This document shows positions 7,661 through 52,182 of a DNA stretch of 64,000 nucleotides, piece after piece. This DNA is from an uncultured Acidobacteriota bacterium (GTDB taxonomy: Bacteria; Acidobacteriota; Polarisedimenticolia; Polarisedimenticolales; DASRJG01): NCBI GenBank assembly GCA_964383585.1, contig CAYLHQ010000013.1, positions 16,944 to 80,943 of the forward strand, given 5' to 3'. Below the pieces are notes generated by a model. The model was not told the origin of the DNA and did not search any database. It was given only the letters and a program-made list of their open reading frames with translations. Each line of letters starts with the position of its first letter. The first letter of the stretch is position 1. Position numbers and translations under genes: made by a program.

Positions 7661-8700
7661 GGGGTCAAGTCTCGTTTCGGGACATTCCTCTAATTCCTGA
7701 GCCCGGCGAGTCAGAGCCCACCGAACGCCCTTGTCTTTCCCCGGTGCGCTCTCCATCTTACGTGCAGGTCCCGGCCTCCCCCACGGAGCCACGATGGCTC
7801 GACCTCTTCGACTGGAAGCCCCCGGCCACTTCTTCCACGTGTTGGCGCGCGGGAACGCCAAGCACCCCATCTTCCTCGACGACCGGGATCGAGAGCGTTT
7901 TTTGGACACCCTCGGCGAAGCCGTGTTCCGCTTCGAGGTGAGATGCCACGCCTACTGCCTCATGGCGAACCACTACCACCTCCTGCTTCAGCCGATGCGG
8001 GAAACCCTGTCGCGCGCGGTGCGCCACTTGAACGGCGTGTACTCGCAGCGGTTCAATCGGAGGCATGAGCGCGTGGGGCATGTGTTCGCGGGACGATTCA
8101 AAAGCCCTCTCGTGGACCGAGAGCATTACCTTCTGGCGCTCTGCCGTTACATCGCGCTCAATCCGGTCCGATCGGGTGCGGTCCGCGAGCCCGCGGACTG
8201 GAAATGGAGCGGTCACCGTGCCCTGGTGGGGATGGATACCGCTCCGGACTGGTTGACCGTGGATGAGGTGCTGCAGGCGTTCGATCCGCGCGGCGACGGT
8301 TTCGCTCGGCATGCCTACGCTCGTTTCGTCGAAGAGGGAATCCGCCCCGACCGCGCGTCGGAGTTCGCCGAGCTCGATCGAGCTGCGGATCTCGGCGGCA
8401 TCCTGGGGCGCTCGGAGTTTATCGCAGGTTTTTCCCGGAGACTCGATCGCTCACGACGCAATCGCGAGCATTCGAAGCGCGAGCGATTCGCGGACCGCCC
8501 CCCGCTCGAGCGGATTCTCGAGGCGAGCGAGTGCGCCGGCCTCGTCGGCCGCATCGAAGCGGCACGGTGCGACCACGGGTATTCGCTGGACGAGATCGGT
8601 CGCGTACTCGGCATTGATCGGAGAACGGTGGTTCGCCTCGTTCGAGCGTCGAAGGTCGAAGGAAGAATTGTCGAAATGTCCCACTTCAAGACTTGACCCC
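7661..8700 (+). mobile_element. RAYT / IS200-like unit bounded by 37-nt imperfect inverted repeats
   Basis: Left 7661-7697 is GGGGTCAAGTCTCGTTTCGGGACATTCCTCTAATTCC. The reverse complement of 8664-8700 is GGGGTCAAGTCTTGAAGTGGGACATTTCGACAATTCT. 25/37 positions are identical, in three blocks. The unit encloses the Y1 transposase gene. Confidence 0.7.
7794..8696 (+). CDS. REP-associated tyrosine transposase (RAYT) / IS200-like Y1 HUH transposase with C-terminal DnaA-C-like HTH
   Basis: HUH motif in CLMANHYHLLLQP. Catalytic Tyr motif LCRYIALNPVRSG. C-terminal GYSLDEIGRVLGIDRRTVVRLV. Noticeably more A/T-ending codons than the neighbouring genes. Confidence 0.85.
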   Translation: MARPLRLEAPGHFFHVLARGNAKHPIFLDDRDRERFLDTLGEAVFRFEVRCHAYCLMANHYHLLLQPMRETLSRAVRHLNGVYSQRFNRRHERVGHVFAGRFKSPLVDREHYLLALCRYIALNPVRSGAVREPADWKWSGHRALVGMDTAPDWLTVDEVLQAFDPRGDGFARHAYARFVEEGIRPDRASEFAELDRAADLGGILGRSEFIAGFSRRLDRSRRNREHSKRERFADRPPLERILEASECAGLVGRIEAARCDHGYSLDEIGRVLGIDRRTVVRLVRASKVEGRIVEMSHFKT

Positions 8701-13438: not shown

Positions 13439-14572
13439 TCAGGCGGGGGCCGCCGGGTAGGAACGTCCCTTCCAGGAAGGGGACCTCCCCGCGACCTTCC
13501 GGACGAGGGCCTGCCACTGGATCGCGAGCAGAAGGACGACGCCGGCCGGGTGGAGGAGCGCGCCGTCCCAAGCGTGGCGGAAGCGTCGGGCCGCGGCGAG
13601 CCTCACGAGGTACGAGAAGGCGATCGCGCACCCCGCGACGGTCGCGGCCGGGCCGCTGCCGCCCGTCGCGACGAGGACCCCCCAGGGAAGGACCTGCCCT
13701 CCGCCCAGGAGGAGGGTCCACGGGACGATCGCTCCCGGCGATGCGAGCCCCTCGGTCGCGTTCTTCCCGAGCCCCCTCCACACCTCGCCGGCGGAGCGGT
13801 ACATGCGGCAGGTCGCGAGCCCGGTCGCGTCGAAAAGGTCGGTCGCGAAGCCGGCGGCGCGGAAGGCGCGCGGGAGCCTCACGCCGTCGTGGAGCGACTC
13901 GCGGATCGCCCCGTGTCCTCCCGCGGCCTCGTAGGCGTCCCGCCGTGCGGCGAACAACTGCCCGCAGCCGGCGCCGAAGGCGGGGTTCACGCTCCTGCGC
14001 ATGAAGTCGACCGGGAGGAAGCCGAGCAGGAGGACGTGCATGAAGGGGAGGAGGAGTCGCTCGAGGAAGGTGACCGTCTCCTGTCGCGGAAATCCGCTCA
14101 CGAGCCCCGCCCCGGTCGCGCGGAGAAACCCGGCGATCTGTGCGAGGGCGTCGGGGGCGAGGCGGACGTCCGCGTCGACGAAGACGAGGACGTCGTGCCG
14201 CGCGTGCCGGGCGAGGACGGCGCAGGCGTGCTGCTTCCCGCACCACCCCGCGGGGAGAGCGGGCGCCCGCTCGAGGCGGACGCGGGGGTCGTGCGCAGCG
14301 TAGGACCCGACGATCGCTGCAGTCCCGTCGTCCGACGCATCGTCGAGGACGATCACCTCGAGGTCGACGCCCCGGCTTCGGAGAACGGCATCGAGGGCCG
14401 CGCCGATGGAGGCCTCCTCGTTCCGCGCGGGGATCAGGACGGAGAGCGAGGGTCGCCGACCGGGATCTGCCGGTGGGGGTGGCGCGTACGAGCGCAGGTT
14501 GCGGAAGAACAGGAGGAACGGGATCGCCGAGAGGGTGAACCCGGTCCAGGCGAGAACGAGCCCCGTCGACAT
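13439..14572 (-). CDS. family 2 glycosyltransferase (CrtQ-like candidate, carotenoid glycosylation)
   Basis: LSVLIPARNEE...VIVLDDASDDGT...VFVDADV GT2 motifs plus C-terminal TM region. Last gene of the carotenoid operon. Confidence 0.8.
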   Translation of the reverse strand: MSTGLVLAWTGFTLSAIPFLLFFRNLRSYAPPPPADPGRRPSLSVLIPARNEEASIGAALDAVLRSRGVDLEVIVLDDASDDGTAAIVGSYAAHDPRVRLERAPALPAGWCGKQHACAVLARHARHDVLVFVDADVRLAPDALAQIAGFLRATGAGLVSGFPRQETVTFLERLLLPFMHVLLLGFLPVDFMRRSVNPAFGAGCGQLFAARRDAYEAAGGHGAIRESLHDGVRLPRAFRAAGFATDLFDATGLATCRMYRSAGEVWRGLGKNATEGLASPGAIVPWTLLLGGGQVLPWGVLVATGGSGPAATVAGCAIAFSYLVRLAAARRFRHAWDGALLHPAGVVLLLAIQWQALVRKVAGRSPSWKGRSYPAAPA

Positions 14573-14581
14573 CCCGCCATC

Positions 14582-15769
14582 CTATCCGCGGCCATGCTCG
14601 CGATGGAACGTCTCTCCCCGAATACGCGCGCGGAGGGCCCGCCAGAGGTCGTACACACCTCCGACCCCCGCGGTTCCGCCCAGGATCGTCTCGAAGCGGG
14701 CGTGGTCTCGCGAGATCGACGCGCGTGCGAGGGCGTCCATCGCCGACTCGAGGCCCGCCGCGACCTCGGCCGTCCACGCCCTCGGTACGCGCGCGGCCCC
14801 GTCTTCGACGACGATCGGCTCCCCCCACAGGCAGAGTGCTTCCGGAGTGCGCTCCTCCCAGAAGGCGTACTCGATCGCGAGCGGGAGGATGGTCCCGCCG
14901 CGCAACCGTCGGGCGGCGTGGCCCACCCCGTCGAGGAGGGTGACCGGGCGCTCCCGGACGTCCGTGAAGCGTCCCTGGGGTGTGATCCAAAGGGCGGTGC
15001 CTGGCCGCGCGAAGATCTCCTCGGTCGCACGAAGGAACGCCGCGGCGCCGCGCCGGGTCCCCGGCTCCACGCCGAAGAAGCCGATCCTCGCGAAGAACCG
15101 GTAACGGGCGAGCATCGCCGCCTCGATCGGGGCGTAATGCTCCCGCTCAGGCAGATACCTCTCGGCCAGAATCAGCCCGACGAGAGGGTCCCACCATCCG
15201 GGATGGTTCGTGGCGACGAGAAGCGACCCGTCGGCGTGGATCGAGGGGAATCCCGGCTGCGCGACGCGCAACGCGTGGAAGCTCCTGCGAACGTAACGGC
15301 GCGCGTACCACCGGAACCACGCAAGGAGTCGCAGCGTGACGCGAATCGTGGGGACGGGAGGATCGAGGGACGTCGCCGAAGTCGCGGTGGGATTTGGGGA
15401 TTCCCTTTCCGCGCCGATCGGAACCTCCGGCTCGCGACTTCGCGGCACGGGCTTCGCGGCGGAACTCTCCGACCCAGCGCAACTTCGGCCCCGTGCGCGG
15501 CGCGAGTTCTCCCCACCGTTCGCGTCACCTTGAAGGAGCGGCAGCGTGACGCGAATCGTGGGGACGGGAGGATCGAGGGACGTCGCCGAAGTCGCGGTGG
15601 GATTTGGGGATTCCCTTTCCGCGCCGATCGGAACCTCCGGCTCGCGACTTCGCGGCACGGGCTTCGCGGCGGAACTCTCCGACCCAGCGCAACTTCGGCC
15701 CCGTGCGCGGCGCGAGTTCTCCCCACCGTTCGCGTCACCTTGAAGGAGCGGGGATTGAGGAATTTTCAT
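14582..15769 (-). CDS. PlsC-type acyltransferase (CrtO-like candidate) carrying a 140-codon in-frame repeat insertion after codon 6
   Basis: NHPGWWD acyltransferase motif and the following domain. The ATG at 15769 directly abuts the TAA of the upstream gene. Residues 7-146 are two identical 70-aa low-complexity units encoded by the 210-bp tandem repeat. Confidence 0.7.
   Translation of the reverse strand: MKIPQSPLLQGDANGGENSRRARGRSCAGSESSAAKPVPRSREPEVPIGAERESPNPTATSATSLDPPVPTIRVTLPLLQGDANGGENSRRARGRSCAGSESSAAKPVPRSREPEVPIGAERESPNPTATSATSLDPPVPTIRVTLRLLAWFRWYARRYVRRSFHALRVAQPGFPSIHADGSLLVATNHPGWWDPLVGLILAERYLPEREHYAPIEAAMLARYRFFARIGFFGVEPGTRRGAAAFLRATEEIFARPGTALWITPQGRFTDVRERPVTLLDGVGHAARRLRGGTILPLAIEYAFWEERTPEALCLWGEPIVVEDGAARVPRAWTAEVAAGLESAMDALARASISRDHARFETILGGTAGVGGVYDLWRALRARIRGETFHREHGRG
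15331..15540. repeat. 210-bp tandem repeat, copy 1 (MITE-like unit with 19-nt terminal inverted repeats)
   Basis: Nucleotide-identical to 15541-15750. Internal TIR: GTGACGCGAATCGTGGGGA (15336-15354) versus TCCCCACCGTTCGCGTCAC (15510-15528), 17/19 complementary. Confidence 0.92.
15541..15750. repeat. 210-bp tandem repeat, copy 2
   Basis: Perfect copy of 15331-15540. AAGGAG occurs at 15323-15328, 15533-15538 and 15743-15748. Confidence 0.92.
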
Positions 15770-15787
15770 TTATCGAGGAATGTCCCC
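15751..15787 (-). repeat. AT-rich junction element related to the RAYT left end (GGGGACATTCCTC...ATTCCTCA)
   Basis: The minus strand reads GGGGACATTCCTCGATAAATGAAAATTCCTCAATCCCC. Compare the RAYT left flank GGGACATTCCTCTAATTCCTGA. It supplies the last 5 codons and TAA of one gene and the ATG plus 6 codons of the next. Confidence 0.65.
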
Positions 15788-17290
15788 ATCCGCGGCGTCG
15801 GCCGCGATCCAGCCGGACATCAGGACCATCGGCATGCCGGGGCCGGGGTGGGCGGCGCCGCCGGAGAGGTAGAGCCCGCGGACGTCGGGGCTCCGGTTGA
15901 TCGGCTTGAACGCCCCCGTGAGGCGGCCGTGGCTCGCGAGGCCGTAGATCGCCCCCTCGAGGACCGAGTAGCGCTCGTGGATGTCCGCGGGTGTGAGCAC
16001 GCGCTCGACCTCGATGCGCTCCTCGATGTCCTCGCATCCTGCCGTGCGCTTCATCTTGTCGAGGATCGTCCTCCGGTAGGCCGGGAGCATCGTCTTCCAG
16101 TCGTGCCCCGCACGGAGGTGCGGCGTGTGGACCAAGACGTAGAGGGCCTCCCCTCCCTCGGGAGCGACCTCGGGCTCGGTGAGGGAAGGAGCGGCGACGT
16201 AGCAGGTCGGGTCGGGGGCGGGCTTCCCGCGGCGGTAGATCGCGTCGAACTCTTCCTCCGGGTCGCGGGAGAAGACGAAGTTGTGGTGGAGGAGGTGCTC
16301 GTAGCGTTCCCGGAGGCCGAGGTAGAGGACGACCCCCGAGCAGGCGGGCTCGTACGCGCGCCTCCGCTCGAAGCGCTCCGCCGCCTTTCCCCCCACCAGC
16401 TCCCGGTGCGTTCGAACGGCATCCATGTTCGACACGACCACGTCGAATGGATGGGCACGCCCGTCGTCGGTTTCGATTCCGGTCGCGCGGCCCGAGTCCA
16501 CCGTGATCCGCCGGACCCCGGCACCCTTGCGGTACTCGACGCCGAGGCGGCTTCCCAGATCGACGAGCGCGCGGGGGACCGCTCCGGTTCCGCCACGCGG
16601 GTACCAGACCCCTTCCCCGGCCTGCATGCTCGCGATGCCCGCGAGGACCGCGGGCGCGCGGTACGGGTCGGAGCCGATGTACTGAGTGTAGTGGTCGAGC
16701 ATCTGAGCGGCGCGCGCGTCGGGAACGTGCGACCGCACGGTCGCGGCGTACGTGCTCCACGACCGGAGGGCGAAGACGTCCTTGACCGTCCCGCCGCGGA
16801 ACGTCTCCTTCGCGCGGAACATGTCGGAGACCGACCCGATCGGTCTGTAGAAGAAGTAGCGGTCGGAGATGTCGTGGAGCCGCCGGGCGAGCGTTTGGAA
16901 CCGGACGAACCCCTCCCCCGCGCCGGTTCCCGGGGCGAGCCGGTCGAGGGAGGCCGCCATCTTCGCGACGTCCTCCTCGAGGTCGAGGACGGTGCCGTCC
17001 TCGAAGAAGCAGCGCCACTGCGGGTCGAGACGAACGAGCTCGAGGTCGGTCTCGAGCGGTGTTCGCGCCTCGGCCCAGATCCGGCGGAGCACCGACGGCA
17101 TCGTGAGGATCGTCGGCCCCATGTCGAAGCGGTAGCCCCCCTCCTCGAGGACGGCGGCCTTCCCCCCGAGCCAGCCGTTCCTCTCGAAGACGGTCACCTC
17201 GAAACCCCGGGCTGCGAGGACCGCGGCGGCGGAAAGCCCGCCGAGCCCGGCGCCGACCACGGCGGCGCGTCTCTTCTTGCCGTTCTTCAT
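15770..17290 (-). CDS. CrtI-family FAD-dependent carotenoid desaturase/oxidase (CrtP-like candidate)
   Basis: N-terminal dinucleotide fold AAVVGAGLGGLSAA. CrtI-family C-terminus LYLSGGAAHPGPGMPMV. ATGA overlap with the upstream aldehyde dehydrogenase. Confidence 0.85.
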   Translation of the reverse strand: MKNGKKRRAAVVGAGLGGLSAAAVLAARGFEVTVFERNGWLGGKAAVLEEGGYRFDMGPTILTMPSVLRRIWAEARTPLETDLELVRLDPQWRCFFEDGTVLDLEEDVAKMAASLDRLAPGTGAGEGFVRFQTLARRLHDISDRYFFYRPIGSVSDMFRAKETFRGGTVKDVFALRSWSTYAATVRSHVPDARAAQMLDHYTQYIGSDPYRAPAVLAGIASMQAGEGVWYPRGGTGAVPRALVDLGSRLGVEYRKGAGVRRITVDSGRATGIETDDGRAHPFDVVVSNMDAVRTHRELVGGKAAERFERRRAYEPACSGVVLYLGLRERYEHLLHHNFVFSRDPEEEFDAIYRRGKPAPDPTCYVAAPSLTEPEVAPEGGEALYVLVHTPHLRAGHDWKTMLPAYRRTILDKMKRTAGCEDIEERIEVERVLTPADIHERYSVLEGAIYGLASHGRLTGAFKPINRSPDVRGLYLSGGAAHPGPGMPMVLMSGWIAADAADGDIPR

Positions 17291-50784: not shown

Positions 50785-52182
50785 CTACGGCCGCTTGAGC
50801 TCGACGCGGCGGTTCCGCGCGCGGCCTTCCTCGGTGTCGTTCGTCGCGGTCGGGCGGGTCTCCCCGTACCCCTTCACCGTCAGCTGGGAAGCGGGCACGC
50901 CCTGGGCGATCAGGTAGTCGGCTACCGCCTGGGCACGCTTTTCGGAGAGCTTCTGGTTGTAGGCGTTGCTTCCCTTCGAGTCGGTATGACCGCCGACTTC
51001 GATCTTGACGTCCGGGTTCGCCTTGAGGCCGCGAGCGACCTTATCGAGGGTCTCCTTGGTACCGGCCGCCAGTTCGGCGCTGTTGAACTCGAAGAGAGCC
51101 CCCTCGAGGACGAGGACCTCCTGGGGCTTGATCACGATCGCCTCCTCCTTCGGGAGGCTGCAGCCCTTTTCGTCGATCTTGTCGCCGGCAGGCGTGCTCA
51201 GGCACTGATCGAGGCCGTCGCAGACGCCGTCCCTGTCGCCGTCGACCGGGCAGCCCTTCGCGTCGACCTTGCATCCCTTGACCGTGTTCGCGCACTGGTC
51301 GAGACCGTCGCAGACTCCGTCTCCGTCCGCATCGGACGGGCAGCCCTTCGCGTCGACCTTGCATCCCTTTGCGGTGCTCGGACAGCTGTCCATCTTGTCG
51401 CAGACACCGTCGCCGTCCGCGTCGATCGGACAGCCGTTCACGTCCACCGAGCAATCCTTGGGGCTGCCGGCGCAGCGATCGAGGCCGTCGCAGACGCCGT
51501 CGCCGTCCGCGTCCCGCGGGCAGCCGGCCTCATCGACGATGCAGCCCGCGGGGGTACCGGGGCACTTGTCCTTCTTGTTCGGAACCCCGTCGCCGTCGTC
51601 GTCCTTGGGAATCGAAGCCGCTCCCCAGGAGAGGCCCATCAGGAACTGCCCGTTCAGGACGTCCTCCTCGTTGAGGCCGGAGGATCCGTAAACCGACTGG
51701 TCGGCGCGGAGCTCCCAACGGAAGGAGCGGTTCTCGGTCTGCTGGTAGCGGCGCCCGACTCCGAGAGAGACCATCCCGCGGCTGAAGTCGTCGCCGGAAT
51801 CGGGGTAGAAGCCCATCCACCCGACGGCGCCCGAGAGGAACCACCGATTCGTCTTCTCCGGGGAGAAGAGATACTCGAGGCCGGTGCGGGCGGTGAGGTT
51901 CGTGACGTCGCCCAGGGCGGTTACGCCGTTGTAAGGAACCGCCGTCCCGTCGAGAAACCATGCGAGCCGCTCGTTCTCCATGAGGTGCGCGAGCCGCAGC
52001 CCGAGTAGCAGGTTCGGCCGGTAGTCCTTCGACTCCCCGACGAACTCCTTGTCCGGGAACCCGAACCCGAGCAGGATCCCGGCCTCGTTCTTCGGCTCGT
52101 CCGCGGCGAGCGCCGCGCTCGCTCCGATCGTCATGACCAGCGCCACCACGGCCAACGCGCGAATCGATTGGGTGATTTTCAC
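50785..52182 (-). CDS. outer-membrane protein: N-terminal beta-barrel-like region, Cys-rich thrombospondin-type-3 repeats, OmpA_C domain
   Basis: AAGGAGGA Shine-Dalgarno before GTG 52182. Signal peptide. Five CPxDADGDGVCDxxDxC units. C-terminal GHTDSKGSNAYNQKLSEKRA. Confidence 0.88.
   Translation of the reverse strand: MKITQSIRALAVVALVMTIGASAALAADEPKNEAGILLGFGFPDKEFVGESKDYRPNLLLGLRLAHLMENERLAWFLDGTAVPYNGVTALGDVTNLTARTGLEYLFSPEKTNRWFLSGAVGWMGFYPDSGDDFSRGMVSLGVGRRYQQTENRSFRWELRADQSVYGSSGLNEEDVLNGQFLMGLSWGAASIPKDDDGDGVPNKKDKCPGTPAGCIVDEAGCPRDADGDGVCDGLDRCAGSPKDCSVDVNGCPIDADGDGVCDKMDSCPSTAKGCKVDAKGCPSDADGDGVCDGLDQCANTVKGCKVDAKGCPVDGDRDGVCDGLDQCLSTPAGDKIDEKGCSLPKEEAIVIKPQEVLVLEGALFEFNSAELAAGTKETLDKVARGLKANPDVKIEVGGHTDSKGSNAYNQKLSEKRAQAVADYLIAQGVPASQLTVKGYGETRPTATNDTEEGRARNRRVELKRP
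51160..51612 (-). repeat. intragenic tandem repeats (about 30 codons each) encoding TSP3-like Ca-binding Cys-rich units
   Basis: Recurrent GTCGCAGAC(G/T)CCGTC...GCAGCCCTTCGCGTCGACCTTGCATCCCTT blocks. The protein repeats CP(S/I/R)DADGDGVCD(G/K)(L/M)D. Confidence 0.8.

Follow-up and report, generated by a model that had tools for sequence, protein, structure and literature searches.

An in-frame tandem insertion of a putative miniature inverted-repeat transposable element in a carotenoid-cluster acyltransferase gene of an uncultured Acidobacteriota bacterium

The window analysed here, a stretch of 64,000 nucleotides from an uncultured Acidobacteriota bacterium, carries within the acyltransferase gene of a carotenoid cluster two identical head-to-tail copies of a 210-bp unit, which together add 140 residues to the predicted protein. 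The overall explanation that we favour, and that we hold to be quite probable, is that a MITE (miniature inverted-repeat transposable element), mobilised by an insertion sequence (IS), inserted in frame into this gene and that a second copy then entered beside the first.

An insertion after codon 6 of the acyltransferase gene

The open reading frame (ORF) concerned (14582-15769, minus strand) encodes a lysophospholipid-acyltransferase-like protein of 395 aa, whose PF01553 acyltransferase domain is found at residues 177-299 and whose codons 7-146 are derived from the insert. It is part of a carotenoid cluster with the gene order CrtI-family, aldehyde dehydrogenase, CrtI-family, acyltransferase, GT2, AbgT and MFS, in the window as well as on the orthologue contigs. 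Alignment with contigs L001, L005 and L006 places the native start at the ATG 15767-15769, which abuts the TAA (15770-15772) of the upstream CrtI-family gene (15767-15772 taken together, minus strand), and this arrangement is common to the window and the orthologue loci. A database look-up of the exact products returned no record for the 395-aa protein or for the 509-aa CrtI call.

The closest orthologues, P0001 (87% identical) and P0002 (86%; from GCA_964628935.1, an uncultured Acidobacteriota bacterium, hereafter the sister genome), are both 255 aa long, that is 395 minus 140, and the contigs of both are in full synteny with the window. They start M(T/K)IPQS-RLLAWFRWYARRY, and the N-terminus of P0001, MTIPQSRLLAWFRWYARRY, is the one that the original prediction, made from the sequence of the window, had reconstructed by deleting the insert. 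In the DNA alignment, the empty site of L001 reads TAA ATG ACC ATT CCT CAA TCC CGG CTC CTC GCG TGG, with CGGCTCCTC as the target, and empty sites are found in all of L001-L007. A related N-terminal segment is present in none of the 39 aligned homologues, and the comparison of orthologues that had been proposed as a check thus came out in favour of an insertion. Because the closest orthologues are 255 aa long, the site is empty and synteny is full, the 140-residue segment is an insertion after codon 6 of the acyltransferase gene, as had been claimed along with the open minus-strand frame.

The possibility that the enzyme has in these 140 residues a genuine domain, repeated at its N-terminus, finds some support in the open frame and in a unit that is an exact multiple of three. 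It nevertheless has practically no probability left, for both the empty sites and the presence of the same DNA at unrelated loci refute it: the segment is absent from 39/39 aligned homologues, the site is empty in the closest orthologues, and the same DNA occurs between genes and, in a different frame, inside another gene (see below). The segment is also predicted to be disordered, and its composition is not that of a coding sequence. Its GC content at codon positions 1, 2 and 3 is 0.69, 0.67 and 0.71, flat like non-coding DNA, and the third-position value (0.714, predicted at about 71 percent) compares with 0.84 for the remainder of this gene and 0.90-0.94 for neighbouring genes.

The open frame is in itself unremarkable at 70% G+C: some 60% of the 210-nt frames drawn at random from this window are stop-free by chance, and 3/6 frames of the unit have no stop. 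As 201 + 9 = 210 nt amount to 70 codons, insertion of this variant shifts no frame. The idea that the family is designed for frame compatibility was rejected, since lengths of 202, 152 and 164 bp are found among the other members; frame compatibility of the 201-bp variant is a matter of survivorship, not of design.

The unit is composed of a 201-bp element and of 9 bp of flanking sequence. Direct comparison bears out the predicted exact identity of 15331-15540 and 15541-15750; the identity extends over 15331-15751, overshooting two full units by one base, i.e. a 1-nt microhomology, and Tandem Repeats Finder reports a single array (15323-15751, period 210, 2.0 copies). All parts lie on the minus strand and, in gene sense, the layout is TCC / CCGCTCCTT / CAAGGTGACGCG...CGCGTCACGCTG / CCGCTCCTT / identical 201 bp / CGACTCCTT / GCGTGG. 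The putative upstream target-site duplication (15743-15751; CCGCTCCTT, coding for P-L-L) is the counterpart of the duplication around another copy, L107 copy A. It is followed by MITE copy 2 (201 bp, 15542-15742), the first met by the ribosome, which reads CAAGGTGACGCGAACGGTGGGGA...TCCCCACGATTCGCGTCACGCTG and is matched by the family nhmmer profile (E 1e-58). Then come the junction 9-mer (15533-15541), again CCGCTCCTT and thus the same as the upstream 9-mer, the identical MITE copy 1 (201 bp, 15332-15532), also matched by the profile, and the putative downstream duplication (15323-15331; CGACTCCTT, coding for R-L-L), which agrees with the upstream one at 7/9 positions.

The hexamer AAGGAG, found at 15323-15328, 15533-15538 and 15743-15748, had been likened to a target-site duplication. 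It is the reverse complement of CTCCTT in gene sense and forms the first 6 nt of the 9-mers, which read AAGGAGTCG at 15323-15331 and AAGGAGCGG at 15533-15541 and 15743-15751. It is thus part of a real duplication (perfect in L107 copy A, 7/9 here), but one of 9 bp and not of 6.

The terminal inverted repeats have a 19-nt core, GTGACGCGAATCGTGGGGA (15336-15354, plus strand, and 15546-15564), which resembles the left end of the partner IS. Its inverted partner (15510-15528 and 15720-15738) lies 155 nt further downstream within each unit and matches at 17/19 positions, as predicted. The motif occurs 4 times in the window where shuffles lead one to expect 0.05, and outside the tandem array the remainder of the 64 kb contains no match to it with up to 3 mismatches allowed; the profile built from six copies (nhmmer) likewise detects no additional element copy in the window. 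Other copies lengthen the termini by 4 nt, to 5'-CA[AG][GC]GTGACGCGAA.

Inside the termini, an inner inverted repeat (15370-15494; arms 15370-15391 and 15473-15494, recurring in copy 2 at +210) of 22 nt and 82% complementarity makes the element a long imperfect hairpin. The folding energies of the unit correspond to a z of about -2.2, with an mRNA hairpin of about -102 kcal/mol per unit. The long-hairpin pairing is kept in 6 family members, with compensatory changes at few positions, and the family profile matches the opposite strand of the element too. An Rfam scan of 14500-16500 (E up to 1) gave only a chance mir-48 match outside the element, and a promoter and terminator scan of 15100-16000 found nothing.

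The element family and its partner insertion sequence

The termini were searched in one genome per species and in a metagenome scan and, as the original prediction had anticipated, they recur as the ends of a repeated element. The sister genome has six matches to the 19-mer on six contigs, all preceded by CAAC and with differing flanks; three of the six termini lie at contig ends, as expected of a high-copy repeat. A full copy in L013 (2491-2691) is 72% identical to the window element, has the same terminus-to-terminus distance of 193 nt and is intergenic, as are the shorter variants in L037 and L040 and a copy from the metagenome scan, L075 (79% identical). Most of the other 19-mer matches in genomes and metagenomes are chance or unrelated, the family members being the CAZVOE loci, L065, L075 and L089, and no termini were found in viral contigs. 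The rarity of the family is misjudged by these scans, in the sense that its abundance is underestimated, because the collections scanned exclude JGI metagenome 3300043177.

It is from this metagenome that the copies closest to those of the window come. With the unit translated in six frames as the query, a single protein was found, P0241, a hypothetical membrane protein encoded on contig L107. The element in its gene, L107 copy A (1035-1235), is 200/203 identical to that of the window (over L107 1034-1236), is flanked by a perfect 9/9 target-site duplication, CGGGTCGCT, and lies in frame between transmembrane segments; the element frame read in P0241 differs from that read in the acyltransferase. 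Copy B of the same contig (10249-10450) is 90% identical and intergenic. Roughly 8 copies were seen in all, and two of them lie within genes (acyltransferase and P0241). The first 350 bp of L107 are the end of an IS copy, which ends 700 bp from copy A.

The element thus displays what is expected of a MITE: a length of 201 bp, no ORF beyond the read-through frames, inverted termini, a target-site duplication, a location at unrelated loci, and an IS with the same ends. Presence and absence are also polymorphic, with 0 copies in L001-L007, 1 in the otherwise identical contig L108 and 2 in the window. Judged by these sequence features, it is a non-autonomous element of the MITE type.

The partner IS is represented by five copies of 1.44 kb (L065, positions 179-1626, L089, L103, L104 and L106), both ends of which have the same termini as the MITE. 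The left end of L065 (179-207) is identical at 28/29 positions to the end of the window element at 15332, the ends common to MITE and IS extend over roughly 23-29 nt, and the IS occurs in related Acidobacteriota. Each IS copy holds one ORF of 390 aa (328-1500 in L065), with homologues P0121-P0389. Homologues of this protein are found almost only on contigs of 1.3-2.5 kb, and some of them are labelled 'transposase-like protein' in their source.

Its family has an N-terminal zinc ribbon (CPxxxC...CxxC), invariant residues D149 and D229 and a nearly invariant E295. HTH_38 matches 17/38 members, Zn_ribbon_InsA 1/38 (E 0.029) and phrog_1191 matches at 4e-5. The 390-aa protein has no match among the models of Pfam and NCBIfam and none among the catalytic-domain models of PHROGs, and no Pfam catalytic domain (including Transposase_mut PF00872 and DDE_Tnp_IS1) was detected in the 1 + 38 + 10 members examined at E up to 0.1-1. 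A PDB profile search with the transposase found nothing, and nothing relevant came out of the literature when it was searched for a published IS family resembling this one. A profile search of the full library collected 2,243 clusters (50% identity) at E <=0.001, and ten distant members among them are also devoid of a catalytic-domain Pfam match. The AlphaFold2 model of the protein (pLDDT 87.8, pTM 0.89) has as its best PDB structure match the chains of ISCth4, of the IS256 family (E 5e-5; 11-13% identity, TM-score about 0.4), followed by the Tn5, Hermes and Mu transposases. Judging from this modelled fold, which is DDE/RNase-H-like, the protein is a DDE-type transposase, belonging to a family that has no curated Pfam or NCBIfam model.

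With IS256 (ISCth4) and IS1 elements, its closest known counterparts, the partner IS has in common a length in the range of 1.2-1.5 kb, a single ORF of about 390-400 aa and inverted termini of about 25 bp. IS256 and IS1 families produce target-site duplications of 8-9 bp. The sizes of the partner IS, 1.44 kb with a 9-bp duplication, fit IS256, and the 9-bp duplication fits IS1. The N-terminal zinc ribbon followed by a helix-turn-helix (HTH) is reminiscent of IS1 InsA, a likeness that remains weak (1/38 for Zn_ribbon_InsA, phrog_1191 at 4e-5). In contrast to both families, the partner transposase has no match to Transposase_mut, DDE_Tnp_IS1 or any other catalytic-domain model (E <=1), as compared with Pfam and NCBIfam models.

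L104 and L105, from two assemblies of one sample, have the same IS copy and left flank and different right flanks. They represent either two insertions or a chimeric assembly across a multi-copy IS, which may be the reason for the lack of a target-site duplication around IS copies.

An entirely different source of mobility could be sought in the window itself, where a Y1_Tnp gene (7794-8693) lies 7 kb away: the long hairpin would then be a REP/REPIN-type palindrome moved by a Y1 (RAYT/IS200-like) transposase. The termini motif is however absent near the Y1 gene and elsewhere in the window (<=3 mismatches), and genomes with the empty site have a single copy of the Y1 gene, in synteny. Moreover, the element makes a 9-bp duplication and has its ends in common with a DDE-type IS; Y1 transposases are not known to generate a target-site duplication. 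The motif absence, the 9-bp duplication and the DDE-type IS ends effectively refute the link, which we regard as highly improbable. The gene itself (plus strand) encodes 300 aa with an N-terminal Y1_Tnp domain (IS200/RAYT-like, E 6e-11) and a C-terminal HTH, has 87% identity to L001 16609-17511, with which it is in synteny, is present in L108 and has no associated repeats that we could see. It has the appearance of a Y1 transposase that is single-copy and passed on vertically.

Three further observations were made during these searches. A weak profile match (E 5e-5) to the MITE interior, lacking the termini, is found in the sister genome in L005 (5264-5385), in an enlarged intergenic region directly upstream of the same carotenoid operon, and may be a decayed copy. 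A Phycisphaerae metagenome-assembled genome, OFTM250 (L025, L027, L030, L041 and L042), contains a different repeat family with a 19-mer variant, GTGACGCGAAGGGTGGGGA, followed by a CCCCACCCTTCGCC hairpin, with at least 5 occurrences in one genome. Finally, the metagenome contig L066 (1-4074; 4,074 bp) has at its two ends inverted sequences of more than 100 nt that are almost the same and both open with the 19-mer; it may be an artefact of fold-back assembly or else an unrelated element bounded by long terminal repeats.

Origin and copy number of the tandem dimer

A one-copy allele is found on L108, a contig of 101.5 kb from JGI metagenome 3300043177, which is also the source of L107; L108 encodes the exact GT2 protein of the window. 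Its allele reads CCGCTCCTT, element, CGACTCCTT, and the only two 'mismatches' of its alignment, the GA/CG of the junction, result from overlapping alignments. Two more contigs of this strain, of 50-200 kb, are on record. The interval between the upstream stop and the start of GT2 measures 778 bp in L001 (0 copies), 988 bp in L108 (1 copy) and 1198 bp in the window (2 copies).

Under the explanation that we favour, the 390-aa IS protein would cut the ends of the element and insert it at a 9-bp staggered target. A first insertion would have produced the one-copy allele as seen in L108, and a second, identical copy would then have entered the upstream 9-mer, duplicating CCGCTCCTT exactly and resulting in the order 9-mer / element / 9-mer / element / 9-mer. 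Neither event would have broken the gene, because 201 + 9 bp make 70 codons and 3/6 element frames are stop-free. Tandem transposon dimers with the target-site duplication in their junction, including those of bacterial IS, are a documented signature of double insertion (PMC5932611).

Several observations weigh against this explanation. No transposase gene was found by tblastn within the 64-kb window. No target-site duplication was seen around nine other full copies (4 older MITE and 5 IS), and the outer 9-mers of the window array agree only at 7/9 positions. Apart from its single unit, L108 does not differ from the window over 13.1 kb, and the dimer may therefore be a recent variant, a polymorphism or minority allele, or an assembly difference. 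Finally, the JGI gene caller bypassed the insert on L108, using an internal TTG.

As regards the outer 9-mers, a match of at least 7/9 at random 201-nt spacing in the window has a chance of 0.011. The 2/9 positions that differ between 15323-15331 and 15743-15751 do so in the one-copy and two-copy alleles alike. The window element differs from L107 copy A at 3/201 positions, yet the duplication of L107 copy A is perfect. Each outer 9-mer is one substitution away from CGGCTCCTT, which may have been the ancestral target, as judged from the empty site CGGCTCCTC of L001. The targets CGGGTCGCT (L107) and CGACTCCTT (window) have a weak pattern in common; with CGGCTCCTT included, they give CGG.TC..T, which would make re-use of a site more likely.

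The dimer could also be real and have arisen when the 9-mers flanking one insertion underwent unequal crossing-over or replication slippage, a course of events that we consider rather unlikely. The period of the array, element plus target-site duplication, is indeed what slippage would give, the flanking 9-mers have CTCCTT in common, and a long hairpin could stall replication. However, an exchange inside CTCCTT would give the junction CGACTCCTT, whereas for the observed CCGCTCCTT the exchange would have to fall on one C common to both, and homology-driven events should take the longest microhomology. The breakpoints of the dimer do not use the 6-nt CTCCTT. The junction, read as a string, is ...CGTCACGCTGC-CGCTCCTT-CAAGGTGACG..., and the exit from the element is CGTCACGCTGC-GACTCCTT-GCGTGG. 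A second insertion at the upstream 9-mer would give exactly the structure observed, and we favour it over slippage.

A further possibility is that the organism has a single copy and that the second 210-bp unit is an assembly artefact, due to a mis-resolved loop or an untrimmed contig overlap. Both the single unit of L108, identical over 13.1 kb, and the 100% identity of the two window copies are in its favour. The duplicated length is however exactly that of the element plus its 9-bp duplication, and the junction copies the upstream 9-mer, as transposition predicts, while an overlap or k-mer error has no cause to keep element boundaries. A de Bruijn assembler cannot create junction k-mers, and short-read assemblers collapse tandem copies more often than they create them. 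In addition, contig L109, a k=31 contig from an independent run, begins with 29 nt of the element end followed by CG. This start implies that the assembly graph branches just after the element end and a C, where junction (CCGCTC...) and exit (CGACTC...) part, which is the branch expected if the junction ...GCTGC|CGCTCC is present in the reads. The single-nucleotide polymorphism of L107 copy A gives no explanation for it, since it would put the branch 27 nt earlier. An artefact therefore appears unlikely to us. The 2 x state originally described thus stands in part: the insertion is certain, but the otherwise identical L108 has a single copy, so that the dimer is not fixed and could be assembly-dependent.

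Fate of the protein and comparison with known systems

In the AlphaFold2 model of the 395-aa protein, residues 1-140 have a pLDDT of 32-55 and no secondary structure, the core is above 90 and the first helix spans 146-163. The inserted residues are thus predicted to be disordered and to be placed directly before the first conserved helix, at a position where homologues have variable N-terminal tails of 0-80 aa ahead of the first conserved motif. If the ribosome starts at the native ATG, which is translationally coupled, 70 or 140 disordered residues should be added before this helix.

It is also conceivable, though we find it improbable, that the insertion inactivated the acyltransferase, leaving a young pseudogene or a gene rescued by internal re-initiation, the insert not being tolerated as protein. 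The presence of 140 low-complexity residues at the N-terminus, the strong mRNA hairpin (about -102 kcal/mol per unit) and the 229-aa product called by JGI from a TTG at codon 167 could all be understood in this way. Against it, the ORF is intact, the coupling of the native ATG to the stop upstream persists, the insert is placed where homologues have variable tails, and the folded core is unaffected in the model. The JGI call itself (L108 5302-5991, equivalent to window 14582-15271) would remove the first helix with its invariant or near-invariant residues F152, Y155, Y159, F164 and H165, and probably reflects a faulty annotation provoked by the MITE. Upstream of the first helix, the frame offers no starts other than the native ATG and GTG codons internal to the element. 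A working enzyme must therefore contain element-derived residues, as the TTG start deletes invariant residues and the other starts are the ATG or element GTGs. Going by the model and the variable tails of the homologues, the acyltransferase probably still works.

In-frame insertions of MITEs are known for ERIC/IRU in enterobacteria, QMITE1/2 in Coxiella burnetii and MITEb/MITEe in Anabaena PCC 7120 (PMC10969869, PMC5896051). Like them, the present element is small and non-coding, has inverted termini and a target-site duplication, and is multi-copy and mostly intergenic, with occasional in-frame fusions that lengthen host proteins. It differs from them in being a new sequence family in Acidobacteriota, in having an identified partner IS with a transposase outside Pfam and NCBIfam, and in forming a head-to-tail dimer inside a coding sequence, with a natural 0/1/2-copy series. 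The dimer is comparable to those of the Drosophila P-element and of bacterial IS, which are likewise head-to-tail with one target-site-duplication length, copying the target, between the copies (PMC5932611). Unlike these, it consists of copies of a non-autonomous element and is located within a gene, and it probably arose by transposition.

The resemblance to the Rickettsia palindromic elements (RPE) noted in the original prediction holds for the way in which the element works, as an in-frame palindrome adding a peptide, and is one of analogy, not of membership: the element is a classical MITE with a partner IS. RPE are 100-200-bp palindromes that enter ORFs in frame, with a peptide predicted to be compatible with the host fold (PMC10969869), and here too there are two independent in-frame insertions (acyltransferase and P0241) and a hairpin conserved across the family. 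RPE are however Rickettsia-specific sequence families with no known transposase partner, whereas the present element has an Acidobacteriota host, an IS partner and a target-site duplication. Several RPE families insert in frame as a rule, against 2 intragenic copies among about 8 here. Frame compatibility, unlike that of RPE, is not conserved in the family (201, 202, 152 and 164 bp), and the absence of stops is expected at 70% G+C. The element does not belong to RPE, as judged by its host, an Acidobacteriota bacterium, and by the finding of family copies only in related metagenomic contigs.

The finding is thus a well-documented new example of a known phenomenon and not a new kind of system, and the current understanding of MITEs is unchanged by it. 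More tentatively, and with rather more doubt than belief on our side, the IS/MITE pair could represent an undescribed IS family with a remotely IS256-like fold, whose 201-bp derivative always adds exactly 70 codons, is stop-free in half of its frames and may preferentially re-insert beside a resident copy. This would provide an RPE-like route for 70-residue disordered modules, single or tandem, in free-living Acidobacteriota.

The alleles with no copy (sister species), with one (a contig of the identical strain) and with two (window) form a natural series in which the tolerance of in-frame selfish DNA can be followed, and acylated versus non-acylated glycosyl-carotenoid is a possible phenotype readout that should be easy. 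A sizeable transposase family that has no curated model, with defined ends and target-site duplication, also aids the annotation of Acidobacteriota and of metagenome-assembled genomes. The truncation of the gene at an internal TTG by an automatic gene caller, with loss of a conserved helix, illustrates the annotation problem. Two other tandem arrays are present in the window, one of a 90-bp unit x3.5 at 51207-51525 (74% matches) and one of GGGAGG x10 at 828-890.

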